Virus record (IMG/VR): IMGVR_UViG_3300029305_010146 | Origin: an uncultured virus (IMG/VR IMGVR_UViG_3300029305_010146) | Lineage: Duplodnaviria > Heunggongvirae > Uroviricota > Caudoviricetes | Reading direction: 5' to 3' (one strand) | DNA length: 64,000 bases | In this document: positions 16,659 through 42,726 of the stretch, piece by piece | Layout of the letters: each line of letters begins with the position of its first letter | Numbering within the stretch: position 1 is the first letter of the stretch | Program-made: the position numbers and the translations under genes | The notes under the pieces: generated by a model | The model's database searches: none | What the model saw: the letters and a program-made list of their open reading frames with translations, nothing else | What the model was told of the DNA's origin: nothing

Positions 16659-16687
16659 TTGACAAATGAAAATCAATGTGTTATAAT
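16659..16687 (+). promoter_or_regulatory. Sigma-A promoter of tRNA operon 1
   Basis: TTGACA-17-TATAAT with extended TG. Confidence 0.85.
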
Positions 16688-16728
16688 GAGTGTACAATAA
16701 AGAAATCAAGAGAAAGGGGTTCGCAATT

Positions 16729-16830
16729 ATGATGAATCTTCACAATTATGATTATAGACATCTTAATAACGATAACGAACGTAGTGCCGATTCATATTTG
16801 CGAGTCACTGCTTGTTTTTCTGCGGCCTAA
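16729..16830 (+). CDS. Leader peptide 1 (Asn/Asp-rich, 33 aa)
   Basis: AAGGGG RBS; MMNLHNYDYRHLNNDNERSADSYLRVTACFSAA. Confidence 0.75.
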   Translation: MMNLHNYDYRHLNNDNERSADSYLRVTACFSAA

Positions 16831-16856
16831 AGGCCAAAGAACTGATGCAAGATTAT

Positions 16857-16898
16857 TCCCAGTGACTGTGGCACATGCAGTTACTGGGATTTTTTATT
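16857..16898 (+). terminator. Attenuator terminator 1
   Basis: TCCCAGTGACTG/CAGTTACTGGGA stem plus T tract just before tRNA-Asp; 5' arm complementary to AGTCACTG at 16803-16810. Confidence 0.8.
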
Positions 16899-16905
16899 GA
16901 ATTAT

Positions 16906-16982
16906 GGCTCGGTAGTTCAGATGGTCAGAGCGCCAGCCTGTCACGCTGGAGGTCGTGGGTTCGAACCCCATCCGAGTCGCCA
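16906..16982 (+). tRNA. tRNA-Asp(GTC)
   Basis: Cloverleaf, CCAGC-CTGTCAC-GCTGG, CCA. Confidence 0.95.
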
Positions 16983-17115
16983 CAAATCCAAACTTAAAAA
17001 AGTCAGAACAAAGGGGATAGGAATAACCCTTCCAGAGACCTCGTGCCTGCACAGGACTTGTTTAGTGGTGTTTGGTCAATACATGTTAGTACTTTGCCAC
17101 TTTCCTATTTAATAC

Positions 17116-17192
17116 GGCTCGGTAGTTCAGATGGTTAGAGCACTGGTCTGTCACATCAGAGGTCACGGGTTCGAACCCCGTTCGAGTCGCCA
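17116..17192 (+). tRNA. tRNA-Asp(GTC)
   Basis: Cloverleaf, CTGGT-CTGTCAC-ATCAG, CCA. Confidence 0.94.
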
Positions 17193-17197
17193 TATAT

Positions 17198-17273
17198 GGG
17201 GCCATAGCTCAGTTGGGAGAGCACCAGCCTTGCAAGTTGGGGGTCGTGGGTTCAAGCCCCACTGGTTCCACCA
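17198..17273 (+). tRNA. tRNA-Ala(TGC)
   Basis: Cloverleaf with G3:U70, CCA. Confidence 0.95.
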
Positions 17274-17296
17274 CCCATTTTTATGGGATTATATAT

Positions 17297-17449
17297 TCCT
17301 CGTTAGCTCAGTAGGTAGAGCAAGCGGCTGTGGTAAATTAGCATAAGTAATGCATATTTATCTGGACGGATAAATAGGATATGAGTTCAAATCTTGTATT
17401 TACCTCCATAACCGCTGGGTCGCAGGTTCGAGTCCTGCACGGGGAGCCA
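17297..17449 (+). tRNA. tRNA-Asn(GTT) interrupted by a 77-nt insert (17332-17408) in the anticodon
   Basis: Joining 17297-17331 to 17409-17449 gives a canonical 76-nt tRNA with AGCGG-CTGTTAA-CCGCT, G discriminator and CCA. Confidence 0.85.
17332..17408 (+). ncRNA. tRNA-like cloverleaf nested inside tRNA-Asn
   Basis: GGTAAAT/ATTTACC acceptor, GCAT/ATGC D stem, 8-bp anticodon-position stem, TTCAAAT T loop, TCCA end. Confidence 0.8.
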
Positions 17450-17464
17450 TGAGATTTGGCCAAA

Positions 17465-17707
17465 AACATCTTTAATAAAAGTTAAAATATTTGCAAAAGC
17501 ACAAAAATATTGCATAATAAAATTATAATAGATAAACTTACAACCAATTAGGTAAGTTTTGCCAAGGGTAAGTTAAATAATATCTATTCCAAAATGTATC
17601 CCATTAGGGTAGAGGTAATGTGTCTTGCCTTAATGGTGGGTTATCCCATCATTAGAAGCACCCACTTCAGAAAAATCGTTAGAATTTTTAAGTGGTGTGT
17701 AGTTCAC
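17465..17707 (+). mobile_element. Possible non-autonomous IS200/IS605-type remnant
   Basis: 3' end GAAGCACCCACTT...AAGTGGTGTGTAGTTCAC resembles TnpB-element right ends; no ORF; left boundary uncertain. Confidence 0.4.
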
Positions 17708-17759
17708 AGGCCAAATTCTCAACCTATTAAATATAACTCCATAATAATGGAGTTTATAT

Positions 17760-17838
17760 CTCCCGATAACTCAGTCTGGTAGAGTGCTTAAATATTTTAT
17801 TTAAGAGGTCGTGGGTTCAAATCCCATAAAGGAGACCA
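17760..17838 (+). pseudogene. Degenerate tRNA gene, anticodon unassignable
   Basis: Good D arm, T arm and CCA, but three acceptor mismatches and an aberrant CTTAAAT-ATTTT-ATTTAAG arm. Confidence 0.65.
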
Positions 17839-18141
17839 AGTCCAAACGCCTCTGCCCAAGGTTGCAAGCGGACCACTTGGACTGCTTGAAAAAAAGTTAA
17901 AATCCTGCTTTTGTAGGACCGACTCTTTGGGATTGATTACCCCAAAAAGGGTTGCTCCAGTTTTGGTTGAACCGCATTTCCAACTCAACAGTCCTAATCA
18001 AACTTTTGTTTTGGAATACTTAATTTACAATATTGTAGCGGGAATATCGATTACATCAAAAAATTCTTTGTTATTTGGATTACAAAATTTTTTATTTTTT
18101 CATTAAATCGATTTCAATATTCGCAATATCGTATTTTATAT

Positions 18142-18226
18142 GCAAGATTGGTGGAATTGGCAGACACGCTGGTTTTAGGCACCAGTACCGTAAGGTTTGT
18201 GGGTTCAAGTCCCACATCTTGTACCA
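18142..18226 (+). tRNA. tRNA-Leu(TAG)
   Basis: Type II cloverleaf, CTGGT-TTTAGGC-ACCAG, CCA. Confidence 0.93.
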
Positions 18227-18348
18227 TGTGCTTCGGCACACCGACAACATAGTTGTCAGTCCAGTGTACACAAAGGACACCATCCAACAGACTTAATGAT
18301 GGAGAGGAGAAACCTCGTGAAACTTTTAGTCAGTTATACACTTCCGAC

Positions 18349-18415
18349 GGCACCGACACATTGATAGGTGAGGTTTTTCGGGAAAGTTTAACCGAGTTCG
18401 AGTCTCGGCGGTGCA
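18349..18415 (+). ncRNA. Short tRNA-like RNA without CCA
   Basis: GCACCG/CGGTGC stem stacked on CCGAG-TTCGAGT-CTCGG T arm; no canonical anticodon loop. Confidence 0.5.
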
Positions 18416-18458
18416 TTAGGGTAAAGAGTGTATGACAAAACTGCCCCCACAAAAATAT

Positions 18459-18536
18459 GTCCCGTTAGCTCAGTTGGAATAGAGCACCGCTCTTCTAAAG
18501 CGGGTGTCATTGGTTCGAGTCCAATACGGGATGCCA
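18459..18536 (+). tRNA. tRNA-Arg(TCT)
   Basis: CCGCT-CTTCTAA-AGCGG, CCA. Confidence 0.94.
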
Positions 18537-18572
18537 TGAAGAAAATATTTTTTCAAATTATAAAAAAAGTAG

Positions 18573-18601
18573 TTGACAAACCTCAAATTATGTGATATAA
18601 T
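18573..18601 (+). promoter_or_regulatory. Sigma-A promoter of tRNA operon 2
   Basis: TTGACA-17-TATAAT with extended TG. Confidence 0.85.
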
Positions 18602-18622
18602 CACAATGTAAATAAGACCTAT

Positions 18623-18709
18623 GCAGAATTGGTGGAATAGGCAGACACGCCGTCTTGAGGGGGCGGTGCCAGTAATGGCGTATGAGTTCAAGTCTCATAT
18701 TCTGCACCA
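18623..18709 (+). tRNA. tRNA-Leu(GAG)
   Basis: Type II cloverleaf, CCGTC-TTGAGGG-GGCGG, CCA; lies upstream of leader 2. Confidence 0.93.
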
Positions 18710-18758
18710 TAAACAAATTATTAAACTATCAAATTTTTTAGAAAAGGAGTAAATCAAA

Positions 18759-18872
18759 ATGAAGTTCAATATCACTTTTGTACATGAATATGAATATCGC
18801 TATGAACACAGGATTTCAAACATTGAGTCTGTGTCTATTCGTCGTGCAAAAAATGGCGATATTGACCACTAA
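18759..18872 (+). CDS. Leader peptide 2 (His/Glu/Tyr run, 37 aa)
   Basis: AAGGAG RBS; MKFNITFVHEYEYRYEHRISNIESVSIRRAKNGDIDH. Confidence 0.8.
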   Translation: MKFNITFVHEYEYRYEHRISNIESVSIRRAKNGDIDH

Positions 18873-18900
18873 AAAGGTTTACTTCAAAAAGTAGAAGTTC

Positions 18901-18945
18901 AATGCCTGATGACTCAATGTTAGAGTTGTCAGGCATTTTTATTTT
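18901..18945 (+). terminator. Attenuator terminator 2
   Basis: AATGCCTGATGACTC/GAGTTGTCAGGCATT stem plus T tract; 18911-18921 is the exact complement of 18819-18829. Confidence 0.85.
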
Positions 18946-18953
18946 ATCAATAT

Positions 18954-19065
18954 AGGGGAGTATGCAAGTGGCCAAAGCAAGGAGCGGTGAACTCCTGTTG
19001 TTTTAGACTTGGGTGCACATGTGGTCTTTACAACTTCGTTGGTTCAAATCCAACCTCCCCTACCA
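18954..19065 (+). tRNA. Atypical Tyr-body tRNA with GTG at anticodon position and about 40-nt variable arm
   Basis: AGGGGAG/CTCCCCT acceptor, loop CGGTGAA (G33), A discriminator, CCA. Confidence 0.6.
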
Positions 19066-19071
19066 ACATAT

Positions 19072-19159
19072 GGGGCAGTATGCATAGCGGCGATTGCAGC
19101 GGGCTGTAAACCCGTGACATTAAGAAACACCGTTGGTTCGAGTCCAACCTGCCTCACCA
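19072..19159 (+). tRNA. tRNA-Tyr(GTA)
   Basis: GCGGG-CTGTAAA-CCCGT, long variable arm, CCA. Confidence 0.9.
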
Positions 19160-19166
19160 TCAGCAT

Positions 19167-19242
19167 GGTGCTATCGACAAGTGGTTTAAGTCGTCGCCCT
19201 TTCAAGGCGGAGTCACGGGTTCGAATCCCGTTAGCATCACCA
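19167..19242 (+). tRNA. tRNA-Glu(TTC)
   Basis: TCGCC-CTTTCAA-GGCGG, CCA. Confidence 0.93.
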
Positions 19243-19246
19243 ATAT

Positions 19247-19330
19247 GGGAGAGTAGCAAATCGGCAACTGCGGCGGTCTGTAAAACCGTTCCTTATAGGG
19301 TAGTGGGGTCGGCACCCACCTCTCCCACCA
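19247..19330 (+). tRNA. tRNA-Tyr(GTA) with variant T loop GTCGGCA
   Basis: GCGGT-CTGTAAA-ACCGT, CCA. Confidence 0.85.
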
Positions 19331-19334
19331 ATAT

Positions 19335-19409
19335 GGCACTTTGGTCAAGCGGTTAAGACACTGCCCTTTCACGGCAGTAACACGGGTTCGAATCCCGTAA
19401 GTGTCACCA
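19335..19409 (+). tRNA. tRNA-Glu(TTC)
   Basis: CTGCC-CTTTCAC-GGCAG, CCA. Confidence 0.94.
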
Positions 19410-19487
19410 GGTAGACGTAGTTCAGTTGGTTAGAACGCCAGATTGTGGCTCTGGAGGTCGTGGGTTCGAATCCCATCGTCTACCCCA
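19410..19487 (+). tRNA. tRNA-His(GTG)
   Basis: G-1:C73, CCAGA-TTGTGGC-TCTGG, CCA. Confidence 0.94.
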
Positions 19488-19490
19488 TAT

Positions 19491-19566
19491 GGCACTTTCG
19501 TCTAAAGGTCAGGACACGGGACTTTCACTCCCGAAATGTTGGGTTCGAGACCCACAAGTGTCACCA
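19491..19566 (+). tRNA. tRNA-Glu(TTC)
   Basis: CGGGA-CTTTCAC-TCCCG, CCA; slightly irregular T stem. Confidence 0.88.
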
Positions 19567-19571
19567 TATAT

Positions 19572-19647
19572 GGTGTAGATGATGTAAAGGTTAGCATAAG
19601 GTGTTGTGACCACCTTTGCATGAGTTCAAGTCTCATTCTTCACCCCA
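19572..19647 (+). tRNA. tRNA-His(GTG)
   Basis: G-1:C73, AGGTG-TTGTGAC-CACCT, CCA; one acceptor mismatch. Confidence 0.85.
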
Positions 19648-19653
19648 TCATAT

Positions 19654-19738
19654 AGGCAGATATGCAAGCGGTCAAAGCGGGCGCACTGTAAATGCGTTAC
19701 TTTTTGTTTCGTGAGTTCGAATCTCACTCTGCCTACCA
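19654..19738 (+). tRNA. tRNA-Tyr(GTA)
   Basis: GCGCA-CTGTAAA-TGCGT, CCA. Confidence 0.9.
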
Positions 19739-19743
19739 AATAT

Positions 19744-19818
19744 GGCGCTATGGTCAAGTGGTTAAGACACCGCCCTTTCACGGCGGTATCACGGGTTCGA
19801 ATCCCGTTAGCGTCACCA
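19744..19818 (+). tRNA. tRNA-Glu(TTC)
   Basis: CCGCC-CTTTCAC-GGCGG, CCA. Confidence 0.94.
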
Positions 19819-19959
19819 TAACAAGTTCGCTTGTGATTTAAAAAGTGTATCCCATAACTTTTCAACTGGAGAAACGAAGCAAATGGGAATATGTCTTTGT
19901 TTCTGGTTTTAGTCGGCAGCGATTGGTTCCTTAACCAAAAACTGATTACTGCCATGCAT

Positions 19960-20036
19960 GGTGCTTTCGTCTAACTGGTCAAGGATGTAAGACTCTCAAT
20001 CTTACGATACGGGTTCAAGTCCCGTAAGCATCACCA
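19960..20036 (+). tRNA. tRNA-Glu(CTC)
   Basis: TAAGA-CTCTCAA-TCTTA, CCA. Confidence 0.9.
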
Positions 20037-20037
20037 A

Positions 20038-20150
20038 GTTGTCGTAGCGGCAATTATGATTTCATCGTATAACGGTTAATACAACAAACTTGAAATTTGT
20101 CCATATAGGTTCGAATCCTATTTATAATCATAATATTTATTCACGACAAC
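20038..20150 (+). ncRNA. tRNA-like RNA (TGA loop) with extended closing stem, no CCA
   Basis: D arm GTAT/ATAC, ACAAA-CTTGAAA-TTTGT, ATAGG-TTCGAAT-CCTAT, closed by ATTATGATT/AATCATAAT and GTTGTCGT/ACGACAAC. Confidence 0.6.
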
Positions 20151-20158
20151 TTTTATAT

Positions 20159-20235
20159 GTGCCAATAGCTCAATGGACGAGAGTGGACGGCTACGAACCG
20201 TCAGGTTGCAGGTTCGAGTCCTGCTTGGCATGCCA
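20159..20235 (+). tRNA. tRNA-Arg(ACG)
   Basis: GACGG-CTACGAA-CCGTC, CCA. Confidence 0.93.
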
Positions 20236-20333
20236 AAACAATGGAGACCAAAAATTAGTCTCCATTTTTTCATTGACAATAAAAGAAAAATCATCTATGC
20301 TATGTTTAACATAAATGAAAGGAATGATTTCTT

Positions 20334-21545
20334 ATGAAATTTAATTGCAAATCTCGCAAAGGTTTCACACTTATCGAACTTCTCGTGGTTATAGGCATCC
20401 TTGCTGTGTTGGCAGCAATTGCTATTCCAAGTGTTGCTGGACTTATTGATAGAGCGAATGTTTCTGCTGACAATACTAATGCCAATGAATATACAAACGC
20501 AATTGAAAGATTTACATCGGAGTATGAACTCTATTGCCAAGATGTAGCATCTGGCAAAATAAAGGATGCGGATAATGATGGTAAACCCGACAATATGGAT
20601 GCAGCACAAGGTCGAGTTTTTAATGTTACTAAAGTAGTTACTCGTGCAGATATTACCGCACTCGAAAGTACTGGACTTGGTGATGCAATGATTAGTAGAG
20701 ATACAAAATATCCTCTTAATGGCATTACTCTCAAATCCATTATTGAGAACTATACAAAAACTAGTTCTGTCACATTCGAACCCAAACAAAGCGATAAAGT
20801 TTATTGGTATTCTCCAGATTGTGGTTTAGTAGTCGTTGCTAATCCTAATTCATCTAAAGATGCTCTTAATAATCTTGTAATTTCGGGTAAAGATGCAAAA
20901 GGCAATACATTAGGTTCTGGAACCAATTGGGTTGATGTTACGAACTACAGTCTTATCAAGATTATATGTGGTAATGGTGCTGACGGTTTGCATTACCACA
21001 ATGACGAATTGTTCACAGGTATTTGCGATAGTGATGGCGAATGGTATGACAATGGCGTACAAGGACCAATTTGCTTCTTATCGGGCACAAAAATCACCAT
21101 GGCAAATGGAACACAAAAAAATATTGAAGATATTATTGTAGGCGATAAGGTAGTATCTTATAATGTAGAAACTAAAATTTTCTATATTACAACTGTCTGT
21201 AACACCTTTGTTAGAGAAACAGAAGTTTATTACACAATAAGATTCGATGATGGAACAGAACTCAATTTAACTGGATGCCATCCGCTATTAACACCAAAAG
21301 GATTCGAAAACATTACTGGTGTCCATGAAAGATTAAATATGGTTGATGCACTTGATGTTGGTGATGAAGTTATTTCTGTCAATGATACCAAAAAAATAGT
21401 TTCTATTGAAAAAATAATAGAAAAAACAACTGTATATAATTTCAATGTTATAGACGACGAAGAAATTATCATTGGTAAAGATAATGATTCTAATGACACA
21501 TATATTGCAAACGGAATTGTATCACACAATGCAGATTATTCTTGA
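20334..21545 (+). CDS. Type IV pilin-like protein with C-terminal Hint (BIL-type) domain
   Basis: KG|FTLIELLVV prepilin motif; Hint CFLSGTKITMANG...TGCHPLLT...VYNFNV...IVSHN at 21072-21530. Confidence 0.88.
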   Translation: MKFNCKSRKGFTLIELLVVIGILAVLAAIAIPSVAGLIDRANVSADNTNANEYTNAIERFTSEYELYCQDVASGKIKDADNDGKPDNMDAAQGRVFNVTKVVTRADITALESTGLGDAMISRDTKYPLNGITLKSIIENYTKTSSVTFEPKQSDKVYWYSPDCGLVVVANPNSSKDALNNLVISGKDAKGNTLGSGTNWVDVTNYSLIKIICGNGADGLHYHNDELFTGICDSDGEWYDNGVQGPICFLSGTKITMANGTQKNIEDIIVGDKVVSYNVETKIFYITTVCNTFVRETEVYYTIRFDDGTELNLTGCHPLLTPKGFENITGVHERLNMVDALDVGDEVISVNDTKKIVSIEKIIEKTTVYNFNVIDDEEIIIGKDNDSNDTYIANGIVSHNADYS

Positions 21546-21794
21546 TAAATACTATGTTTCTGACTTTTCGTTATTATAAACAAAACTATATCACATAATT
21601 ATAATACAATAGGTACTTATATACCAAAAACAACTCTTTATTTCTATAAAGAGTTGTTTTTTATTCTCGCTATATTTTTTGATTTATACTTTTCGTTTAT
21701 AATATTATTCAAAACCCCATTGACAAAATCCAACCTTGCAAAACCCCGCAAAATACCATATAATATATCTATCATACAAAAGAGGTGAAACATA

Positions 21795-22277: not shown

Positions 22278-22401
22278 TCAGCAAAGTCTCAATCAACCAA
22301 TAATCGGTAAAAATTAACTTCCCAAAATAACCATATCAACCATCGGTATGTTTACATTTTTTATTTTGTCTATTATATTGTAGGTAAAGGAGGCATCTTA
22401 T

Positions 22402-23013: not shown

Positions 23014-23158
23014 CAAAAATAGGAGTTCTTTTTGAACTCCTATTTTTTATAATGCACTTTGTGTTCAAAAAGAAACAAACAAAACAATACAAATTTCATT
23101 GACAATAAAAGAAATATCGCCTATGCTATGTTTAACATAAATGAAAGGATGATTTTTT

Positions 23159-24145
23159 ATGAAATTTAATTACAAATCTCGCAAAGGTTTCACTCTTATT
23201 GAACTTCTTGTAGTCATTGGTATTTTAGCAGTTCTCGCTGCTATTGCTATTCCATCAGTTGCTGGTCTCATTGACAGAGCAAACGTTTCTGCTGACAATA
23301 CCAATGCGAGCGAGATGACGAATGCTATGGAGAGATTTGTATCTGAATATGAATTATTCAGACAAGATATTGCATCGGGCACATTTGATAAAGACAATAT
23401 GGATGCCACACAAAGCAGAGTGTACAATGTTACAAAAGCAGAAACTCGTACCGACATTGAGAAACTCGAAAGTAAAGAAGGTCTAAATGGTATTCGCATC
23501 GATATCGATAACAAATATGCACAAAACCACGAAACTGCAAAAGCAGTAATGCGGAATTATATGAAGACCAGTTCTTCCACTTTCGAACCAAAACAGAGCG
23601 ATATGACTTATTGGTATAATACAGTCACTGGTTATACTGTTGTTGCAGAAAAAGATACAGATACTTCAACCCTATATACTAAACTACCAACACAAGTAGA
23701 ATATGTGAACAACACTCCTGCATCAATTAATGAATGGATTGACTTATCTTCTACTGTTGTCATCCCAGATATTGCTTTAATTCATGTGCATAAATGGCCA
23801 ACTCTGGATGCAGAAGGCAAACATCAAATATGCATGCATTATTCTGGTGAAATTCCAGACGATTCGATTGGTGAATTATTCTTAATTTGGGATTTAGGCG
23901 AATATGAACAAGGTGAACTACCAACACTAAACTATACGAATTCTTATAGAGAACCATGGAAGATGACTGGCAGCAATCCGCCGTGCAATGGAGAATATAA
24001 TGTGAGGTTGCATGGATACAAACCAGAACAATTAGATAAAGTAGAATACTTTAGATGGTGTTACAAATACAACGAAAATGGTCAAACAAAGTTTGTGTAC
24101 TCACCAATTTATGCTTTTGCATTCAATGATTTACCAAACGAATAA
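23159..24145 (+). CDS. Type IV pilin-like protein
   Basis: Same KG|FTLIELLVVIGILAVLAAIAIPSV N-terminus; unrelated C-terminal domain. Confidence 0.88.
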   Translation: MKFNYKSRKGFTLIELLVVIGILAVLAAIAIPSVAGLIDRANVSADNTNASEMTNAMERFVSEYELFRQDIASGTFDKDNMDATQSRVYNVTKAETRTDIEKLESKEGLNGIRIDIDNKYAQNHETAKAVMRNYMKTSSSTFEPKQSDMTYWYNTVTGYTVVAEKDTDTSTLYTKLPTQVEYVNNTPASINEWIDLSSTVVIPDIALIHVHKWPTLDAEGKHQICMHYSGEIPDDSIGELFLIWDLGEYEQGELPTLNYTNSYREPWKMTGSNPPCNGEYNVRLHGYKPEQLDKVEYFRWCYKYNENGQTKFVYSPIYAFAFNDLPNE

Positions 24146-24252: not shown

Positions 24253-24267
24253 CCCACCCACCCACCC
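24253..24267 (-). other. G-quadruplex motif GGGTGGGTGGGTGGG
   Basis: Plus strand reads CCCACCCACCCACCC. Confidence 0.7.
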
Positions 24268-25353: not shown

Positions 25354-26838
25354 ATGAAATTTAATGCAAAATCTCGTAAAGGTTTCACCTTGATTGAACT
25401 CCTCGTGGTTATTGGCATTCTTGCCGTTCTCGCTGCAATCGCTATCCCTTCCGTTGCTGGTTTAATCGACAGAGCAAACCAGTCTTCCGATAACACAAAT
25501 GCAAAAGAGATGACAAATGCCATCGAGCGCTTCACTTCTGAATACGAACTATACTGTCAAGATGTAGCATCTGGCACATTAAATGTAACAGACCTCGATT
25601 CTGCACAAGGAAGGGTATTCAACGTAACGGAGATTGAAACTCGAAAAGGTGTAGAGATGACCGAAAACCTCGGTTATACACACGACATAGTAGCAGTTGA
25701 CAGAGATACAAAATATCCAGTTAACGAAGTTACTGCAAAAAAGGTTATCGAAAACTTTATGAAGACCAGTTCTTCCACCTTTGAACCAAAGCAGAGTGAC
25801 TGCAGTTATTACTATTCTCCACAGGTTGGTAAAGTAGTTGTTGCTAAAACTGGTAGTACCATTGCAGAATTAAATAAAATTGCTATGGAAGATGAAGCAG
25901 AGTATGCAACAATTAACAATGGCGAAATCATTGAATGGATTAACCTTTCCGTTAATGCAGGAAAAGAAGTAAATGACTGGACCTATGTTAATGCAGCAAC
26001 CCCAACGAACAATCAATATAAAGAATTAGGTACAAAAGCACCTACTTTTAATATTGAGTGGAGTGCAAAGAATGAAGCAACTGGTCAACCAGTTACGGTT
26101 GGTGTTTCTATTTCTAATTCAAATTATTCTGGTAATGGCACAACTCCTTGTACGATGACGAATGTCCCAATGGGCAAATATGCATTGGTAGCAACTTATG
26201 CTGGTAATGAGTACAAATTCAACTTGCTTGTTTACCAAGAAGGAATTCAAACATTCAAGTTAACAATTCCAGGAACTAATATTTCTGTTGGTTCTGATAA
26301 CGATACATATGTACCAAGTGGCGGTTCTACACCAAGCACCCCAAGTACTCCCGAACCACCAATTCAAAGTTGTCAACATACAAATACCAAAGTAATCAAT
26401 GCAAAAGAGGCAACCACTGATGAAAAAGGTTATACTGGCGATACTTGGTGCAACGACTGTAACACTAAAATTGCAAGTGGTACAGAAATTAATTTCTTAC
26501 ATACAGTAACGATTGATTTTACAAATGGTTATTCTGTTAATCAAGTTTCGCGTAGTGATTTGGTTTATTTTTCAATGGATGGCGGTAATACATGGGTTGA
26601 CCTTGCAACACTTCTACCACAAGAAATATCCCCTTATCAAAGAACAACTATAACAATCGAGTGTTCTCAAATTAAAGCAGATATACGATATATGAATGGC
26701 CCAGGATATCAATTTTTGTCTAATGATTTAGGTGTTAACTTTGTGTGTTTGGCAATGAATACCGTAACAGATAATTTGATATTAACAGAAGATATTGTAA
26801 TTACAATTTCATTTGACCACTCTGGTGGTGCCAATTAA
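25354..26838 (+). CDS. Type IV pilin-like protein
   Basis: Prepilin motif; Pro-rich linker and CQH...GYTGDTWCNDC module shared with 61381; ends HSGGAN. Confidence 0.88.
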   Translation: MKFNAKSRKGFTLIELLVVIGILAVLAAIAIPSVAGLIDRANQSSDNTNAKEMTNAIERFTSEYELYCQDVASGTLNVTDLDSAQGRVFNVTEIETRKGVEMTENLGYTHDIVAVDRDTKYPVNEVTAKKVIENFMKTSSSTFEPKQSDCSYYYSPQVGKVVVAKTGSTIAELNKIAMEDEAEYATINNGEIIEWINLSVNAGKEVNDWTYVNAATPTNNQYKELGTKAPTFNIEWSAKNEATGQPVTVGVSISNSNYSGNGTTPCTMTNVPMGKYALVATYAGNEYKFNLLVYQEGIQTFKLTIPGTNISVGSDNDTYVPSGGSTPSTPSTPEPPIQSCQHTNTKVINAKEATTDEKGYTGDTWCNDCNTKIASGTEINFLHTVTIDFTNGYSVNQVSRSDLVYFSMDGGNTWVDLATLLPQEISPYQRTTITIECSQIKADIRYMNGPGYQFLSNDLGVNFVCLAMNTVTDNLILTEDIVITISFDHSGGAN

Positions 26839-35746: not shown

Positions 35747-35820
35747 AAATTGTGTTATTTTTTTAGTATTAACACACTTTAAGTGTTATAAAATATATTC
35801 TTTCGAAAGGATGCTAAAAT

Positions 35821-36531: not shown

Positions 36532-36647
36532 GAAAAACTACTTATATAAAGCACATTGGATTTCCACTCCAATGTGCTTTTTTCTGTTGACATTCCTTTT
36601 GCTTTGTGGTATAATATATAATAGTGAAATAGAAAGGAGATGAATTT

Positions 36648-37487: not shown

Positions 37488-37600
37488 GGTTTTTTGCTTG
37501 ATTAATTTTCCCAAACAAGATATAATAAAAATGCAACAATAACATAGCAATTTTATTATGGTTTTTGTGCAACTCCAACAAAAAAAGGAGCGGATTTATC

Positions 37601-37873
37601 GTGCAGTGTAAAATTAAGAAAGTTAAATCTTTCAAACCAAACGAACAATGGTTTTTACCTCCTGACAACATACAGGTAATTAAACAAACTGTTGAAGCAG
37701 CACTTAAAAATGCCAAATATTCAGTTGACCCAGTAGAATATTTTCAAGCAATGAAGTCAAAATATGATGCAATTCTTGAATTAGAACGGGTCGAAAACGA
37801 TTGTACTTGCGGTGTTAAACTTAATGGGAAAGTCGTTTATATTCCTAACTTACCTAATGAAAGCGAACAGTAA
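37601..37873 (+). CDS. Hypothetical protein
   Basis: GTG start after AGGAG. Confidence 0.55.
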   Translation: MQCKIKKVKSFKPNEQWFLPPDNIQVIKQTVEAALKNAKYSVDPVEYFQAMKSKYDAILELERVENDCTCGVKLNGKVVYIPNLPNESEQ

Positions 37874-37954
37874 TTGTTCGCTTTCTTTTTTCTTCTATTG
37901 ACAAGTGCGCAAGTTTGTGATATAATATAGAAAAACATTTAAGGAGTTTTTGAT

Positions 37955-38164
37955 ATGAAATATGTGATTTTGTGCGATGAATTACCAGAAAAATGCGAAA
38001 AATGTATGTTTTTCGGAGACGGTTTCAACAAAACAGATATCCCCAATCATTTTGAACTTGTTCAGAAATGTATACTTGGTGCAACTGATAAGACCGCCTG
38101 TCCCCTCACTCCTATCAAAACAATGTTTGTAGATGATGAAGAAATGGATGTGATGAAAAAATGA
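37955..38164 (+). CDS. Small Cys-containing hypothetical protein
   Basis: Promoter, AGGAG RBS, PEKCEKCMF...CPL. Confidence 0.6.
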   Translation: MKYVILCDELPEKCEKCMFFGDGFNKTDIPNHFELVQKCILGATDKTACPLTPIKTMFVDDEEMDVMKK

Positions 38165-39060
38165 AGTTAAGCGATTTGCAATTCAAACTAAAACAAATTG
38201 CTGATTTTGTTATTGAAGAAACTTATTCTAATCTTGGCGAAAGAAAACTAAACAATTATAAAAATTTCAATCTTGTTTTATCTGAAAAGGAATACAAATC
38301 GAGATTAGGTATTTATAGAATTCAATCAAAAACAGTAGAAGTATCTTCTGTAAACAAAGTCTATTTCTATGACATAATCATCACACTGTTGCACGAATTA
38401 GCACATCATATCGAATATTGCGACAACAAAACCACTGGTCACAGTGCAAACTTTTACAAAATTCATACACAACTTTTATTCCGTGCATTGGATGCGGGTG
38501 TTATTTCTTACGAAGATGTAATGAAAACAACAGAGACTTCTCTGGCGAGGAACAAAGACAAATTCGCCAATATGGTATCTAAATATATTAAAAGAGATGC
38601 CAGAAATATTTCGTCTGTTTGCGATTTATCTTTTGTCAAAGAATATAACAAACTTTCTCCAATCAACGAAGTAATTAAAGTAAAGTGCCAATCCAAGGAT
38701 TCTAAACTCTTAAAAGATAGAGGATACTTGTGGTCTCCCGAAGAAAAAATTTGGCACAAAACATTTTATAAACAACCAGAGTATAACGCAGAAGTTAACT
38801 TTCTTATTGAAAACAAATTCTGCAACTTCAAATTAAACGGTTTTTCTTACTTTGTGAATGAAATAGTTTTTGTAGTTTACGGCAACACCTATCGTCATCG
38901 TGATAAGCTAAAAGAACTTAATTATAGTTTTATTGATAAGGAATGGAGAAAGATTGTTCCAGTTGCGAATCATCGTAGTGAATTGACAAAACTTTATAAA
39001 ATTAACGGAATTAGACTCAAATATGAGTTTGTTCAAAAAATGAAGCAGAAGACTAATTAA
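38161..39060 (+). CDS. HExxH zincin (SprT/WLM-like) domain protein
   Basis: LLHELAH...GHSANF. Confidence 0.7.
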   Translation: MKLSDLQFKLKQIADFVIEETYSNLGERKLNNYKNFNLVLSEKEYKSRLGIYRIQSKTVEVSSVNKVYFYDIIITLLHELAHHIEYCDNKTTGHSANFYKIHTQLLFRALDAGVISYEDVMKTTETSLARNKDKFANMVSKYIKRDARNISSVCDLSFVKEYNKLSPINEVIKVKCQSKDSKLLKDRGYLWSPEEKIWHKTFYKQPEYNAEVNFLIENKFCNFKLNGFSYFVNEIVFVVYGNTYRHRDKLKELNYSFIDKEWRKIVPVANHRSELTKLYKINGIRLKYEFVQKMKQKTN

Positions 39061-39074
39061 AGTCTTCTGCTTTT

Positions 39075-39611
39075 TCATTTTGTTTTAATGCAGATTTTTT
39101 TAGGTAACAATCTAAATTTCTTTTTTATAAATGGCAAGAACAGCGGAACACCCATAGGGTTTAGCATATCCATAAACAGATGACTAAAAATTCCGATACT
39201 TAATCCGACCATTCCCAAATCCAACCAAGGATTATTAAATACAAACAACATTAATAGAATTGGAATGGATAAAAACAGCAAAGAGTGTGTAATTCCTCTG
39301 TGTCCAACAAAATCCTTTGTATATTTGAATTTTCCAAAAATAAACTGCAAAATTCTATATGGTATTGATGCAAGGAAAAACTTTTTAGACATTGTAGATG
39401 TTGGGTGGTCAATATCGGGTAACAAAGAACCTAACCAAGAAGAACCAACAACTACGCCTGCATTTATCATATCTCCTTGTGTAATATCTCCATATATAAC
39501 ATTGCTGAAAGAATTTTCTACAAGCAAATTCGCTTCTGGGATTTTGTGTAAAACATACAATCCTGCCAAACCAAAAACAACACCTGCCATAGCATGTACT
39601 TTTCCGTTCAT
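39075..39611 (-). CDS. Inner-membrane metal-dependent hydrolase (YdjM-like)
   Basis: MNGKVH, GSLLPDIDHP, HRGITHS, SHLFMD...GVPLF. Confidence 0.88.
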   Translation of the reverse strand: MNGKVHAMAGVVFGLAGLYVLHKIPEANLLVENSFSNVIYGDITQGDMINAGVVVGSSWLGSLLPDIDHPTSTMSKKFFLASIPYRILQFIFGKFKYTKDFVGHRGITHSLLFLSIPILLMLFVFNNPWLDLGMVGLSIGIFSHLFMDMLNPMGVPLFLPFIKKKFRLLPKKICIKTK

Positions 39612-39710
39612 ATTTCGTTCTCCTTTTATTATTCTTTCCCTTATTATACCACATAATTTTCATAATGTCAACAGAAAAATCCCATTGTTTTTCAACAATG
39701 GGATTGTTCT

Positions 39711-40403
39711 TTACTTTTTACCGAAAAGTCTTTTCCACAAGGATGCCTTTTGAGGGGAACTCTCTTCGTTTTTCACTTCAATAGACTGTTTCTCCTCATT
39801 TTCTTCGACTTTCGAAGTCTCTTCCGATTCACGAACCTGTACCTCGCTTACTTGCGGTTCGCAGTTCTGCGAAACCTCTTGCTTTTGCTCTTGCTCTTGA
39901 CAAACTTCAGCGAAAAGTTTCAGTTGGTGTTCGAAATTTTCATCGGACATACAAAATTCGATAACATTCTCCGCATTACTGTCGCCAAACTGTCGCAAAG
40001 AATTCAGCATCTCTTTCATATTTTTAATCATAAGAGACTTCTTCACAGAATTCTGTACATTGCGCAACTGCGGACTGTTTTCTGGAACTCGATAACCATA
40101 CAAATCTTTCGTTGCCTGCTTCACAATAGCATTTTCTTTCTGAATAGCATTTTCATAAGAATAAATAAGCGGGTTCTTCGAAATCTTCACGATGGTTTTC
40201 TTTGCGATGTCAAAGCGCTTTACTTCTTCATCGTTTTCCTGTTTGTTTACCCGAAGTTCAAGGGACGCCAAAAGATAGATTACCTTTGTGTAAGTACTTG
40301 CAATAATATCGTACTTTTTGACAGATATGTTGTAGGAAGGTAAATCAACCTTCGTCATGTCTACCAAAGACAATACATTCTGCAAGTTTTCCCGACCATT
40401 CAT
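39711..40403 (-). CDS. Hypothetical protein with C-terminal amphipathic tail (SLWKRLFGKK)
   Basis: AGGAGG RBS before ATG 40403. Confidence 0.68.
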   Translation of the reverse strand: MNGRENLQNVLSLVDMTKVDLPSYNISVKKYDIIASTYTKVIYLLASLELRVNKQENDEEVKRFDIAKKTIVKISKNPLIYSYENAIQKENAIVKQATKDLYGYRVPENSPQLRNVQNSVKKSLMIKNMKEMLNSLRQFGDSNAENVIEFCMSDENFEHQLKLFAEVCQEQEQKQEVSQNCEPQVSEVQVRESEETSKVEENEEKQSIEVKNEESSPQKASLWKRLFGKK

Positions 40404-40493
40404 TTTTATATCCTCCTTTATATTTTTTAAAATGGTACTAATATAATAATATTCTTTCACCAAAATATTTTCAAAAAATATTTTAAAAACTAC

Positions 40494-40522
40494 TTGACAA
40501 AACAAATCCAATGTGCTATAAT
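40494..40522 (+). promoter_or_regulatory. Sigma-A promoter of tRNA operon 3
   Basis: TTGACA-17-TATAAT; shares AATGTG.TATAATGAGT with promoter 1. Confidence 0.85.
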
Positions 40523-40577
40523 GAGTACAACGAAAGTCGAAAACGACTAAAAATCTTACGAAAGGTAGTGCACAGTT

Positions 40578-40661
40578 ATGAAAAACTTCACCACATCAAC
40601 AAGTCCATACGGTACATCGTCCAGTGCTACAACAATTCATAATGTGTCACTGTCTTTTTGA
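40578..40661 (+). CDS. Leader peptide 3 (Thr/Ser-rich, 27 aa)
   Basis: AAAGGT RBS; MKNFTTSTSPYGTSSSATTIHNVSLSF. Confidence 0.8.
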   Translation: MKNFTTSTSPYGTSSSATTIHNVSLSF

Positions 40662-40693
40662 CATGCATTAAATGCATATGTGCAGATTAGATT

Positions 40694-40732
40694 GCCAGTG
40701 ACCACACTATGTGATTACTGGTTTATTTTTTT
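40694..40732 (+). terminator. Attenuator terminator 3
   Basis: GCCAGTGACCACA/TGTGATTACTGGT stem plus T tract abutting tRNA-Thr; 5' arm pairs with TGTGTCACTG in the leader. Confidence 0.8.
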
Positions 40733-40806
40733 GCAGATATAGTTTAATGGTAGAATAGTTGTTTCGTAATCATCAGATGTCAGTTCGATTCTGACTATCT
40801 GCTCCA
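40733..40806 (+). tRNA. tRNA-Thr(CGT), weak anticodon stem
   Basis: GCAGATA/TATCTGC, loop TTCGTAA, CCA; two T-T mismatches in the anticodon stem. Confidence 0.72.
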
Positions 40807-40810
40807 ATAT

Positions 40811-40886
40811 GCTGGTGTAGCTCAATAGGCAGAGCAATTGATTTGTAATCAATAGGTTGCAGGTTCAATTCCTGTCACCAGCTCCA
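40811..40886 (+). tRNA. tRNA-Thr(TGT)
   Basis: ATTGA-TTTGTAA-TCAAT, CCA. Confidence 0.94.
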
Positions 40887-41340
40887 GAGTGGTTCGACTA
40901 GTTAGATAGCACTTCCGCCCTTAAAGAAAGCCATCTAACAGGATGACAACCTTGCAGTTATCAATAAGCGAATGAGTAGTGGTATATTGAAAGTTCAAAC
41001 TGTTGGTAACAAAATAGTCAATATGCCTTAATGTGTTGTAGAAACTTGCGAAGACTACAACCACCTGCAAACTTCAGTGAGCAGGCGGATACATACATAA
41101 AAGACTTCCGACGGTGAACCCTTTTGAAGCACTGTGTTTTAGGCGGTCATTTATTATAGGGTATATGAGAGTGTTTGTTATAAGAGCATAGTGCTCTTGC
41201 ATGCAAGCAGATATTCCCATATATCACTAAATAAATGATGAACAGCCGAGTTAAGCAGGTAAGCATATTGGTTGCAAACGATATGGTTTTTGGTGGGCAG
41301 GATGAGAAAAGGGCTGGAAGAACGACATCTAACCGTTTTC
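40887..41340 (+). ncRNA. Candidate large structured ncRNA
   Basis: No ORF of 60 aa or more, several helices, 5' and 3' ends partly complementary. Confidence 0.45.
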
Positions 41341-41343
41341 TAT

Positions 41344-41419
41344 GCTGGTGTAGCTCAATAGGCAGAGCAATTGATTTGTAATCAATAGGTTGCAGGTTCG
41401 ATTCCTGTCACCAGCTCCA
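41344..41419 (+). tRNA. tRNA-Thr(TGT)
   Basis: One-nt variant of 40811-40886. Confidence 0.94.
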
Positions 41420-41812
41420 AGGGTTTGTAACAAATGTGGTTCCCTAACAAAAATAAACTTCATTTGTAGTCGCACGGACTTAACGTGCAATACCGATTAT
41501 AAACACTAATGTGTTTCTAATATCTGGTGAACTCTACCAACCTTTCTAAATGGGAGATAGTCCAAAAGCACACCCGTGTGAGGATGAGACAAGTGAGATA
41601 GTTTGTAACCCAGAAGACGAACAGAGAGTTACAAATGACACCTTGAGACAGTGGGGTTTGAAGAAACTGTCGGTTTCGTGAGTTTTCGAAGGCTTTCACA
41701 ATTCAAGTATCGAATACAATAATGTTGGCGAGAATAGGACGATATGGGTAGTTACTATGACATCGCAAAATTGTTTTTAATAACACTTCACTGGCATTTT
41801 CGAAGTGTATAT

Positions 41813-41930
41813 GACCGTAAGTGGAAGTAAGTAACGGAGTAATTAACCGTGAAAGCGAGAACACCGCCCTATGCTAGTTAAGGGGTAGAGAGTTGTACGA
41901 GAACGGGTTTGAGTCCTGACACGGTTGCCA
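41813..41930 (+). ncRNA. Expanded tRNA-like RNA ending in CCA
   Basis: GACCGT/ACGGTT+GCCA, CGGG-TTTGAGT-CCTG T arm, enlarged D and anticodon loops. Confidence 0.55.
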
Positions 41931-41939
41931 TATTTTTTC

Positions 41940-42070
41940 AGATGTGTGGTGTAAAAGTACGATACATAAAATAGCACACCCTGTAGTTGATAACCATAAT
42001 AACCTTTCTATGATACGGCAGAAAGGGGCAGGGAAATCCTACTTGGAGAATCGGGAGTGTAGGCACATCT
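41940..42070 (+). ncRNA. tRNA-geometry RNA with all three loops enlarged
   Basis: AGATGTG/CACATCT, GTGT/GCAC, CCCTG/CAGGG, CCTAC/GTAGG with canonical 2/1/4-nt junctions. Confidence 0.55.
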
Positions 42071-42077
42071 TTTTAAT

Positions 42078-42153
42078 GCAGGTATAGTATAGTTGGTTAG
42101 TATGCGACATTGCCAATGTTGCGGCGCGGGTTCGAGTCCCGCTACTTGCTCCA
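42078..42153 (+). tRNA. tRNA-Gly(GCC)
   Basis: CGACA-TTGCCAA-TGTTG, T discriminator, CCA. Confidence 0.9.
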
Positions 42154-42159
42154 TTATTT

Positions 42160-42247
42160 GGAGAGTTGTCCGAGCGGTTTATGGAGCACGACTTGAAATC
42201 GTGTGATACCTTTGCGGGTACCCAGGGTTCGAATCCCTGACTCTCCG
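42160..42247 (+). tRNA. tRNA-Ser(TGA), CCA not encoded
   Basis: Type II cloverleaf, CACGA-CTTGAAA-TCGTG. Confidence 0.93.
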
Positions 42248-42319
42248 ACCACACAAGATAAGAACCTTCACGTTGGTGTGTGGTGTTAAACCCGTCCTCG
42301 AACGGTAACTAATCTTATC
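42248..42319 (+). ncRNA. HDV-like (theta-type) ribozyme
   Basis: P1 ACCACAC/GTGTGGT, P2 GATAAGA/TCTTATC, P3 ACC/GGT, P4 CCGT/ACGG, J4/2 CTAA. Confidence 0.8.
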
Positions 42320-42332
42320 AAACTCCCAGCAT

Positions 42333-42421
42333 GGAGAAATGTCAGAGTTCGGTTGAATGAGCCCGCCTCGAAAGCGGGTAACCCTGAAAGGGGTTCGGGG
42401 GTTCAAATCCCTCTTTCTCCG
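42333..42421 (+). tRNA. tRNA-Ser(CGA), CCA not encoded
   Basis: CCCGC-CTCGAAA-GCGGG, long variable arm. Confidence 0.92.
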
Positions 42422-42459
42422 AAGATACTCCTCTTTTCCCAGAAGAGGTTTATATATAT

Positions 42460-42548
42460 GGAGTGGTCGCATAGTAGGTCTAGTGCAGCGGTTTGCTAAA
42501 CCGCCGACCGTTTATAGCGGTCCGAGAGTTCGAATCTCTCCCACTCCG
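42460..42548 (+). tRNA. tRNA-Ser(GCT), CCA not encoded
   Basis: GCGGT-TTGCTAA-ACCGC, long variable arm. Confidence 0.92.
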
Positions 42549-42620
42549 AGTGTACAAGATAAGAACCTTCACGTCGGTGTACACTGTTAAATCCGTCTTT
42601 GAACGGTAACTAATCTTATC
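42549..42620 (+). ncRNA. HDV-like (theta-type) ribozyme, second copy
   Basis: Same fold; P1 AGTGTAC/GTACACT shows compensatory changes relative to copy 1. Confidence 0.8.
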
Positions 42621-42633
42621 AACAACCGAACAT

Positions 42634-42726
42634 GGTAGCGTGTCCGAGTGGTTTATGGTGCTCGCCTGGAAAGCGGGTAGTCGTTGTTGAGACGGCTCGC
42701 AGATTCGAATTCTGCCGCTACCGCCA
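42634..42726 (+). tRNA. tRNA-Ser(GGA)
   Basis: CTCGC-CTGGAAA-GCGGG, CCA. Confidence 0.93.

Follow-up and report, generated by a model that had tools for sequence, protein, structure and literature searches.

Candidate leader-peptide attenuators precede the tRNA gene arrays of an uncultured virus

The DNA analysed here is a stretch of 64,000 nucleotides from an uncultured virus of the Caudoviricetes (IMG/VR record IMGVR_UViG_3300029305_010146), called the window throughout. It has a G+C content of 35.5% and carries 26 tRNA genes detected by ARAGORN plus two further tRNA-like matches to Rfam, which sit in two arrays at 16.9–20.2 kb (array A) and 40.7–42.7 kb (array B). Array A contains two of the leaders that are the subject of this work and array B the third; each leader comprises a short open reading frame (ORF) followed by an intrinsic terminator, and the codons of the ORF match tRNAs of the array in which it stands. 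We propose that each leader is probably a ribosome-mediated (class I, trp/thr-type) transcription attenuator set before tRNA genes. This reading had been put forward in a preliminary description made from the sequence alone, and it is partly supported by the analysis reported here.

The three modules lie on the plus strand, and each begins with a promoter in which TTGACA and TATAAT are separated by 17 nucleotides (nt), match the consensus at 12 of 12 positions and are accompanied by a TG before the −10 element (P1, 16659–16687; P2, 18573–18601; P3, 40494–40522). P1 and P3 are followed by a GAAAGG-type Shine-Dalgarno sequence, an ATG, the ORF and an intrinsic terminator. P2 leads first into a gene for tRNA-Leu(GAG) (18623–18709) and then into a module of the same type with a 37-codon ORF. 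The ATG lies 8–9 nt behind the Shine-Dalgarno sequence in each of the three leaders. Leader ORF 1 spans 16729–16830 (33 codons plus stop; MMNLHNYDYRHLNNDNERSADSYLRVTACFSAA), and its Shine-Dalgarno sequence, read from the DNA as GAAAGGGG at 16712–16719, is also part of the RNA segment 1 discussed below. Leader ORF 2 spans 18759–18872 (37 codons plus stop; MKFNITFVHEYEYRYEHRISNIESVSIRRAKNGDIDH) with AAAGGAG at 18743–18749, and leader ORF 3 spans 40578–40661 (27 codons plus stop; MKNFTTSTSPYGTSSSATTIHNVSLSF) with GAAAGGTAG at 40560–40568. No second ORF of at least 8 codons in any of the leaders has a Shine-Dalgarno site. As in class I attenuators, each of the three leaders carries a short promoter-proximal ORF equipped with a ribosome-binding site and a start codon, and an intrinsic terminator stands between this ORF and the first regulated gene. 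Terminator T1 (stem 16857–16889 with 14 pairs, T tract 16890–16895 of six T, −21.1 kcal/mol) and terminator T2 (stem 18901–18937 with 15 pairs, T-rich tail to 18949, −21.5 kcal/mol) are strong. Terminator T3 (stem 40694–40722, T tract to 40732, −13.5 kcal/mol, followed by TTTATTTTTTT) is moderate; it was missed by a simple terminator scan and identified by sequence reading and folding.

The gene for tRNA-Asp behind T1 starts at 16906 and that for tRNA-Thr behind T3 at 40733, so that the first gated gene lies 10 nt after the T tract in leader 1, approximately 5–12 nt in leader 2 and 0 nt in leader 3, somewhat wider than the 0–9 nt given in the preliminary description. No promoter was found between the terminator and the first tRNA gene at any of the three leaders. 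Behind the leaders there are only tRNA genes up to the terminators at the array ends, and none for amino-acid biosynthesis, transport or aminoacyl-tRNA synthetases. The uniform order of promoter, ribosome-binding site, ORF of 27–37 codons and terminator that had been described for all three tRNA clusters is present, with the qualification that P2 first serves the ungated tRNA-Leu(GAG). Perfect promoters of the form TTGACA-N16–18-TATAAT occur 17 times in the window, most of them with TG before the −10 element. The module is absent at the 14 that do not head tRNA genes: a hairpin of −11 kcal/mol or lower with a T tract lies within 390 nt of all three perfect promoters heading tRNA genes and of 0 of the 14 others, one of which has a weak hairpin site of −9.7 kcal/mol. 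The presence of leader ORF and terminator modules before the tRNA arrays is confirmed in every element described. Consensus promoters precede nearly every operon of the window and form an unusually uniform set.

The match between leaders and arrays was scored at the level of codons, using the anticodons of the canonical tRNAs and strict wobble rules. Cluster 1 was taken as Asp, Asp, Ala, Asn, Leu-TAG and Arg-TCT; cluster 2 as three Tyr, five Glu, two His, Ser-TGA and Arg-ACG; and cluster 3 as three Thr, Gly and four Ser. All in-frame windows of the 47 long ORFs of the stretch (15,787 codons) served as a null set, and 347 short ATG ORFs of 20–45 codons from the six frames as a second one. Clusters 1, 2 and 3 read 10, 9 and 3 of the 32 codons of leader 1, 7, 14 and 4 of the 36 codons of leader 2, and 3, 5 and 13 of the 26 codons of leader 3. 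In leader 2, nine matched codons follow one another without interruption (codons 9–17, 18783–18809; CAT GAA TAT GAA TAT CGC TAT GAA CAC, encoding HEYEYRYEH), all read by the Tyr, Glu, His and Arg tRNAs downstream; a run of 9 out of 9 is reached by none of 15,411 coding windows and, among the short ORFs, by the leader itself only. The Thr/Ser-rich run of leader 3 (codons 5–19, 40590–40634) has 11 of 15 codons read by its own Thr, Gly and Ser tRNAs, a score reached by 2 of 15,129 windows and by a single short ORF, which is leader 3 itself. Against its own cluster, leader 1 reaches 8 matched codons of 15, as do 62 of 15,129 windows, and the unmatched codons in the run are those for His and Tyr, which are served by tRNAs farther down array A, behind leader 2. 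When leader 1 is scored against the whole of array A (cluster 1, Leu-GAG and cluster 2; background 0.385), a codon set that was defined after the data had been seen, codons 3–18 (16735–16782) form 16 consecutive matches, which occur in none of 15,082 windows and in one of the 347 short ORFs, again the leader itself.

The correspondence extends to individual codons, since AGA in leader 1 is paired with Arg(TCT) and CGC in leader 2 with Arg(ACG). Cross terms are low: leaders 1 and 2 contain 3 and 4 cluster-3 codons, and the 8 array-A codons among the 26 of leader 3 are fewer than expected from background. Coverage of all four Ser isoacceptor classes in leader 3 is not significant (P = 0.21 for 7 codons, 0.09 for 5). 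A codon-level match that is specific to each array is thus supported. Regulatory codons that relate to the regulated function form a run or are enriched, as is typical of class I attenuators, in leaders 2 and 3, and in leader 1 when it is compared with array A. The earlier proposal that each leader is enriched for the amino acids of its own cluster holds for leader 2 (9/9) and leader 3 (11/15), but the match of leader 1 to its Asp/Asn sub-cluster is weak.

Relatives of the element were sought with a profile of the S41 peptidase encoded next to the leaders, and a metagenome scan with this profile gave two useful loci, L001 and L002, among the best 80 stretches. Locus L001 (91% S41 identity) has the same two leaders with array A rearranged, so that the Tyr, Glu and His genes differ in order and number behind an identical leader 2. 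Neighbouring genes of L001 have diverged by 8.8–10% and the spacers of the tRNA region by approximately 2%, compared with one difference in 203 nt for leader 1 (an extra T in the T tract) and one in 192 nt for the ORF and terminator of leader 2; the 5′ untranslated region of leader 2 has 12 differences in 49 nt. Locus L002 (59% S41 identity) has a leader-1 orthologue in the same place, ahead of Asp, Gly and Asp tRNAs, after which the contig ends. Its ORF has 33 codons and stays in frame despite a 3-nt deletion and a 3-nt insertion, and this leader can form the same helices. Its peptide (MMFPTNTYRHLDNIAIVGSDTSFMRVTACFSVA) is not rich in Asn and Asp, and TAT AGA CAT CTT GAT AAT is the sole block shared with leader 1.

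A profile search of 1.84 billion proteins gave two further small homologues of leader peptide 1, P0121 (32 residues) and P0122 (homologous part in 33 residues), both of which retain DYRHLNNDNE. The homologues thus have 32–33 codons with in-frame indels, and DYRHLNNDNE is present in three of four distinct forms. For leader peptide 2, a 90% identity cluster contains nine distinct forms, of which eight have HEYEYRYEH and the ninth has HEHEYRYEH, a Y-to-H change that stays inside the matched set; codons 2–8 vary freely in these forms and include an in-frame indel. P0121, P0122 and the leader-2 variants were compared as proteins. Relatives thus retain the ORFs and their runs (L001, P0121, P0122 and the leader-2 forms); in L002 the ORF is retained and the Asn/Asp enrichment is missing. 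No orthologue of leader 3 was obtained, and its 27-residue peptide is absent from the protein collection. Phage and plasmid collections gave no close relatives, with tRNA-sized matches only, and scans of IMG/VR with the S41 peptidase, the 229-residue neighbour of leader 3, a 30-mer of tRNA-Leu, the S41 alignment and the leader-peptide alignment as queries found none. A 17-mer from segment 2 gave four matches in IMG/VR, which were judged to be due to chance and have no tRNAs nearby. A scan of genome contigs with the S41 alignment returned only bacterial homologues with at most 43% identity over the best segment and no leaders; near-full-length bacterial S41 homologues are at approximately 33% identity or less. 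The tRNA region of Enterococcus phage VRE9_1 was considered as a possible cultured example and yielded only low-scoring small ORF calls.

The leader RNAs fold better than shuffled sequences at full length (z = −5.1, −5.7 and −2.4 for leaders 1, 2 and 3). In leaders 1 and 3, a segment in the 3′ part of the ORF (segment 2) can pair either with the Shine-Dalgarno and start region (segment 1) or with the 5′ arm of the terminator (segment 3), the latter being paired with segment 4 in the terminator itself. Segment 1 of leader 1 (approximately 16713–16744) pairs with segment 2, whose core AGTCACTG (16803–16810, codons 25–28) is complementary to 16860–16867 in the 5′ arm of T1 and is invariant in L002 and leader 3. 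The corresponding segments 1 and 2 are at 18806–18819 and 18819–18834 in leader 2, where 18819–18829 are complementary to 18911–18921 in T2, and at 40560–40583 and 40637–40653 in leader 3. Leaders 1 and 3 are paralogous at the RNA level, as their promoters, Shine-Dalgarno sequences and the blocks GTCACTG, CCAGTGAC and ACTGG can be aligned; these three blocks, which are common to leader 1, leader 3 and L002, correspond to segments 2, 3 and 4, respectively. The middle of the ORF is completely different between leaders 1 and 3, and the C-terminal peptides differ because GTCACTG is read in different frames. The leader peptides, described earlier as unrelated, are so at the peptide level, but leaders 1 and 3 are related as RNA.

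The consensus fold of leader 1, L002 and leader 3 features a long 1:2 helix sequestering the Shine-Dalgarno sequence and the AUG, together with the terminator, and 9 of its 37 pairs have compensatory changes on both sides. The 1:2 duplex has an energy of −22.9 kcal/mol in leader 1 (4 of 500 shuffles as stable) and −19.6 kcal/mol in leader 3 (0 of 500). That of leader 2 does not rise above shuffles in this long-range test (71 of 500), and leader 2 has a local 1:2 hairpin at 18806–18834 instead. For the 2:3 duplex, the ORF codons were tested against the terminator 5′ arm plus loop, giving −19.6 kcal/mol for leader 1 (21 of 1000 shuffles as stable), −19.1 kcal/mol for leader 2 (5 of 1000), −15.9 kcal/mol for leader 3 (104 of 1000) and −21.6 kcal/mol for L002 (12 of 1000, with a longest perfect complement of 7 nt). 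A narrower test leaving out the terminator loop was not significant for any leader. A segment complementary to the terminator 5′ arm had been placed near codons 21–27 of each leader. It is found at codons 25–28 of leader 1 (8 nt; 5 of 1000 shuffles) and codons 21–24 of leader 2 (11 nt; 1 of 1000), but the 7-nt complement at codons 23–25 of leader 3 is matched by 111 of 1000 shuffles. Mutually exclusive 1:2, 2:3 and 3:4 helices of the class I type are accordingly present, as had been described, with a 2:3 duplex that exceeds shuffles in leader 1, leader 2 and L002 and does not in leader 3.

The consequences of ribosome position were modelled at equilibrium with transcripts cut at the terminator loop, which represents the moment of decision, and with ribosome-covered nucleotides masked. 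The probability of the 2:3 helix in leader 2 is 0.01 with no ribosome, 0.95–0.98 with the A site at codons 1–16, 0.25–0.81 at codon 17 and 0 at codons 18–27, followed by a brief rise near codons 28–32 and a return to 0 at the stop codon. In leader 3 it is 0.84 with no ribosome, 0.50–0.99 at codons 1–19 and 0 from codon 20 onward and at the stop. In leader 1 it is 0.96 with no ribosome, 0.87–0.99 at codons 1–21, 0 at codons 23–31 and 0.22–0.96 at the stop codon, and L002 resembles leader 1. In both leader 2 (codons 9–17) and leader 3 (codons 5–19), the end of the enriched run coincides exactly with the edge of the "on" zone, and the model supports the view that the enriched codons lie where a stalled ribosome would free the antiterminator. 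As modelled, leader 2 behaves as a textbook attenuator. The expected pattern, in which a stall favours the antiterminator and a ribosome at the ORF end or no ribosome favours the terminator, is clean for leader 2, restricted to the comparison of stall and stop for leader 3, and ambiguous for leader 1 at equilibrium.

In the proposed mechanism, host RNA polymerase would start at the consensus promoter and a ribosome would load on the leader ORF. A ribosome moving rapidly through the test codons would cover segment 2, or leave it to re-pair with segment 1 behind it, so that the terminator forms and the tRNA array is not transcribed. Should the matching charged tRNAs be scarce, the ribosome would stall on the test codons, segment 2 would pair with the terminator 5′ arm, and the antiterminator so formed would let the polymerase read into the array. 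Each leader would thus be translated and would measure the speed of decoding at the codons served by its array, read-through being conditional on slow decoding. Since the array's own tRNAs read the test codons, the product would remove the stall, and this negative feedback loop would match the supply of these tRNAs to demand. As a trigger, amino-acid starvation agrees poorly with such logic, because extra tRNA cannot cure a lack of amino acids. Shortage of or damage to tRNA fits better, an unsuited host pool and tRNA-cleaving defences being the candidate triggers.

Several results weigh against this reading of the leaders. The whole ORF of leader 1 matches its own sub-cluster weakly (10 of 32 codons; binomial p = 0.06, empirical 0.08), and the match to the whole of array A carries less weight because its codon set was defined post hoc. 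Judged from its sequence, L002 is the principal finding that speaks against strict codon matching in leader 1: the composition of its leader is ordinary, with two Asn and two Asp codons, 9 of its 32 codons belong to the array-A set, and three are read by its three visible tRNAs. The 2:3 complementarity of leader 3, taken alone, is within chance both for the duplex (104/1000) and for the 7-nt complement (111/1000). At equilibrium the terminator of the full-length leader wins at every ribosome position (P = 0.96–0.97 for leaders 1 and 2), and any switch must for this reason be kinetic, as in classical attenuators. In the mask model leaders 1 and 3 form the antiterminator with no ribosome present (0.96 and 0.84), and leader 1 and L002 form it with a ribosome at the stop codon too (0.22–0.96), so the model does not reproduce a default-off state for leaders 1 and 3. 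Such a state would need persistence of the earlier-made 1:2 helix or a closely following ribosome. Finally, in Bacillus subtilis the coupling of transcription to translation is reported to be largely absent, and such uncoupling would hinder leader-peptide attenuation in a Firmicute-like host unless the polymerase pauses.

The dominance of the terminator in every modelled equilibrium state of the full-length leader would equally be expected if fixed, partly leaky terminators simply throttled very strong promoters, with short ORFs that are incidental or untranslated and a constitutive tRNA output set by terminator efficiency. Damping of this kind could be useful, as all promoters of the window are at consensus strength. 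It leaves unexplained, however, why array-matched codon runs that occur rarely or never in approximately 15,000 coding windows, and in no other of the 347 short ORFs, should stand in these leaders, why the Shine-Dalgarno sequence and ATG are conserved and indels are in frame, why the Y-to-H change falls within the matched set, and why the run ends fall on the modelled switch boundary, and we consider this explanation unlikely. The conserved 1:2, 2:3 and 3:4 helices, for their part, would serve any antitermination mechanism, including one in which a protein of the element or host, or uncharged tRNA in the manner of a T-box, stabilises the 2:3 helix and the ORF is a by-product. T-box and protein-mediated attenuation are common in Firmicutes. 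Searches for a T-box or other Rfam family on the leaders gave no match even at E values up to 5, reading of the antiterminator sequences revealed no UGGN bulge, and neither the codon match nor the conservation of the ORF would be explained, which makes factor-dependent antitermination quite improbable.

Conservation of DYRHLNNDNE and HEYEYRYEH at the amino-acid level in relatives would also be expected if the ORFs encoded functional micro-peptides, such as ribosome-arrest peptides or small regulators, whose likeness to the tRNA set is secondary. Against this, leaders 1 and 3 share an RNA switch yet read GTCACTG in different frames, giving different C-terminal peptides, the three peptides are unrelated, and nothing in such a function predicts that each would be built from the amino acids of its own downstream tRNAs; of the explanations considered here this is the one to which we give the least credence. 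Each of the three accounts for part of the anatomy, and none for array-matched codons in three unrelated peptides or for the coincidence of runs and boundaries.

Beyond attenuation as such, the leaders could be damage sensors in tRNA conflict, that is, decoy frames sampling the tRNA species that a host or competitor would be expected to destroy, with replacement tRNAs made only during such an attack. We put this forward tentatively, as a speculative extension of the attenuator reading that we doubt more than we believe. Of the 14 codons at positions 3–16 of leader 1, 11 are of the NAY type and specify Asn, Asp, His or Tyr (binomial p = 2.5e-6), and array A holds diverged isodecoder copies for two Asp, one Asn, three Tyr and two His tRNAs. 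The tRNAs for Asn, Asp, His and Tyr are the four tRNAs of the queuosine family. The same four are, according to extracts of the source publications, the exact target set of colicin E5-type anticodon nucleases (PMC1669751, PMC1635277), and tRNA depletion is described as an immune strategy in extracts of a further report (PMC12851939). These parallels would support a role in damage sensing by analogy only. Tpt1/KptA, a CCA-adding enzyme and PTH2, which act in tRNA repair or rescue, are encoded in the same window and may be cited alongside it.

The arrays themselves have several unusual features. The first part of array A (16906–18536, plus strand) consists of Asp, Asp, Ala, a split Asn, a tRNA-like gene, Leu(TAG) and Arg(TCT) with long spacers. 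Its gated part (18955–20235, plus strand) consists of a tRNA-like gene, Tyr, Glu, Tyr, Glu, His, Glu, His, Tyr, Glu, Glu(CTC), a 73-nt Ser(TGA) and Arg(ACG), and the unit ends with a hairpin and six T at approximately 20241–20271. Array B (40733–42763, plus strand) consists of Thr(CGT), Thr(TGT), Thr(TGT), Gly(GCC), Ser(TGA), Ser(CGA), Ser(GCT) and Ser(GGA), with its final terminator at 42733–42763. The first gene behind T2 is a non-canonical tRNA-like sequence (18955–19066) called by neither ARAGORN nor Rfam; its acceptor and T arms are Tyr-like, its anticodon loop reads CGGTGAA, its variable region is approximately 40 nt long, and over 112 positions it shows only 2 differences from L001. Another non-canonical tRNA-like gene (17760–17835) has three non-standard acceptor pairs and a 9-nt loop. 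In tRNA-Asn(GTT) (17290–17450), a 77-nt insert splits the anticodon loop and has a tRNA score of its own (Rfam, 39.9 bits, with a 12-nt anticodon-loop region). The insert is strain-specific, because it is lacking in L001, where the Asn gene is intact, and in contigs of runs X8 and X13, where 17331 is joined to 17409. A second variable insertion within a tRNA gene of array A affects tRNA-Arg(TCT), in which runs X7 and X13 have 154 other letters in place of 19 nt of the anticodon arm (18486–18506).

The tRNA-Ser(TGA) called by ARAGORN at 20058–20130 is 73 nt long, AT-rich and devoid of the long variable arm expected for bacterial Ser tRNAs, so its identity is doubtful. The five Glu tRNAs (19167–20036) are diverged isodecoders, 79% alike by the mean column identity of the aligner, rather than recent duplicates, and the four UUC copies retain CTTTCA as the core of the anticodon loop. 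In the 141-nt spacer before tRNA-Glu(CTC) (19819–19959), which is nearly unchanged in L001, there are a GGAGAAA site, a 9-codon ORF (MGICLCFWF) and behind them a GGCAG…CTGCC hairpin that lacks a T tract. In array B, an element of approximately 80 nt is repeated between Ser tRNAs (42252–42331 and 42550–42633; copies 89% alike by the same measure) and contains a AAGATAAG…CTTATC stem seen by eye. Contigs of the metatranscriptome library X19 match the inter-tRNA spacers 17855–18115 and 18242–18445 with one mismatch each. These two long spacers may thus be present as RNA, and carry-over of DNA could also account for the contigs. The spacer folds at 17836–18141 and 18227–18458 are unremarkable (z = −1.75 and −1.56).

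The predicted protein genes of the window resemble those of very large phages or comparable mobile elements and include ThyX, NrdD/NrdG, dUTPase, an HD dGTPase-like protein, Sir2 (52657–53484), two DNA methylases and PcfJ. The RNA 2′-phosphotransferase Tpt1/KptA (8033–8599), the CCA-adding enzyme (50606–52192, minus strand) and the peptidyl-tRNA hydrolase PTH2 (53485–53835) appear to be genes for tRNA care or repair and translation rescue. An IscB-like protein with RRXRR and HNH domains at 2–1051 (minus strand) runs past the end of the window and is adjoined by a HEARO RNA (130 bits). A type IV pilin N-terminal methylation motif is present in the proteins at 20334–21545, 61381–63321, 23159–24145 and 25354–26838, two of which have a HINT/intein-like domain at the C-terminal end. 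No structural phage gene lies within the 64-kb window, and for this reason we only infer that the element is a phage. The element is very large, as the identical leader-2 peptide occurs on 35 recorded contigs of up to 678,911 bp. Contigs from three DNA runs span both leaders, those from RNA libraries do not reach them, which is neutral as to expression, and the public runs holding the stretch are animal faeces and gut metagenomes according to their records.

If the attenuator reading is correct, decoding capacity would be under a direct and self-correcting control whose sensor is written in the codons of the controlled tRNAs, and the three leaders of one genome, having different codon sets, would provide built-in controls of specificity. 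This would bear on an open question, namely the reason for the many tRNAs in large phages and the timing of their expression, and if the trigger is tRNA cleavage by defence nucleases, the system would constitute an inducible counter-defence. Textbooks describe leader-peptide attenuation for genes involved in making or charging amino acids. The preliminary description knew of no case in which it controls tRNA genes themselves, and our full-text literature searches likewise found no paper describing such control.

Among known systems, E. coli pheM-pheST is a leader-peptide attenuator before aminoacyl-tRNA synthetase genes. Leader peptides also stand before synthetase genes in Streptomyces lividans (alaL-alaS, thrL-thrS and trpL-trpS), where, as extracts of the published account indicate (PMC8079986), leader translation controls a component of translation serving the sensed codons, as it would here. 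Those leaders control the charging enzymes, whereas the ones described here precede tRNA genes, in arrays of 8–13, on a mobile element. In B. subtilis, the resistance genes vmlR (PMC9226507) and yxjB (PMC6851288) are preceded by attenuators in which, according to extracts of these reports, a ribosome stalled on a leader ORF controls an intrinsic terminator in a Firmicute, aided by pausing of the polymerase; there the stall is caused by antibiotics, whereas codon hunger and tRNA genes are proposed for the present leaders. T-box riboswitches, which are common in the likely host phylum (Firmicutes), also sense the state of specific tRNAs and switch between terminator and antiterminator, but they bind uncharged tRNA directly and have no ORF, whereas the present leaders have one; the Rfam covariance model for the T-box gave no match in 16600–20300 or 40400–42800 at E values up to 5, and neither did the curated Rfam leader families (His, Thr, Trp, Leu, Phe and others) on the leaders at the same threshold. 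A close likeness in layout is to the thr, ilvGMEDA, trp, his, leu and pheA leaders of E. coli, which combine a short ORF near the promoter, containing a stretch of regulatory codons, with overlapping 1:2, 2:3 and 3:4 helices and with an intrinsic terminator ahead of the first gene under control; in the multivalent thr and ilvGMEDA leaders several amino acids are sensed by one leader. The leaders of the window have no sequence relation to these, as judged by Rfam leader families, and differ in that segment 1 of leaders 1 and 3 coincides with the Shine-Dalgarno/AUG region and their segment 2 is within the ORF. They also differ in that the genes under control are those of tRNAs, so that the product would act directly on the sensor.

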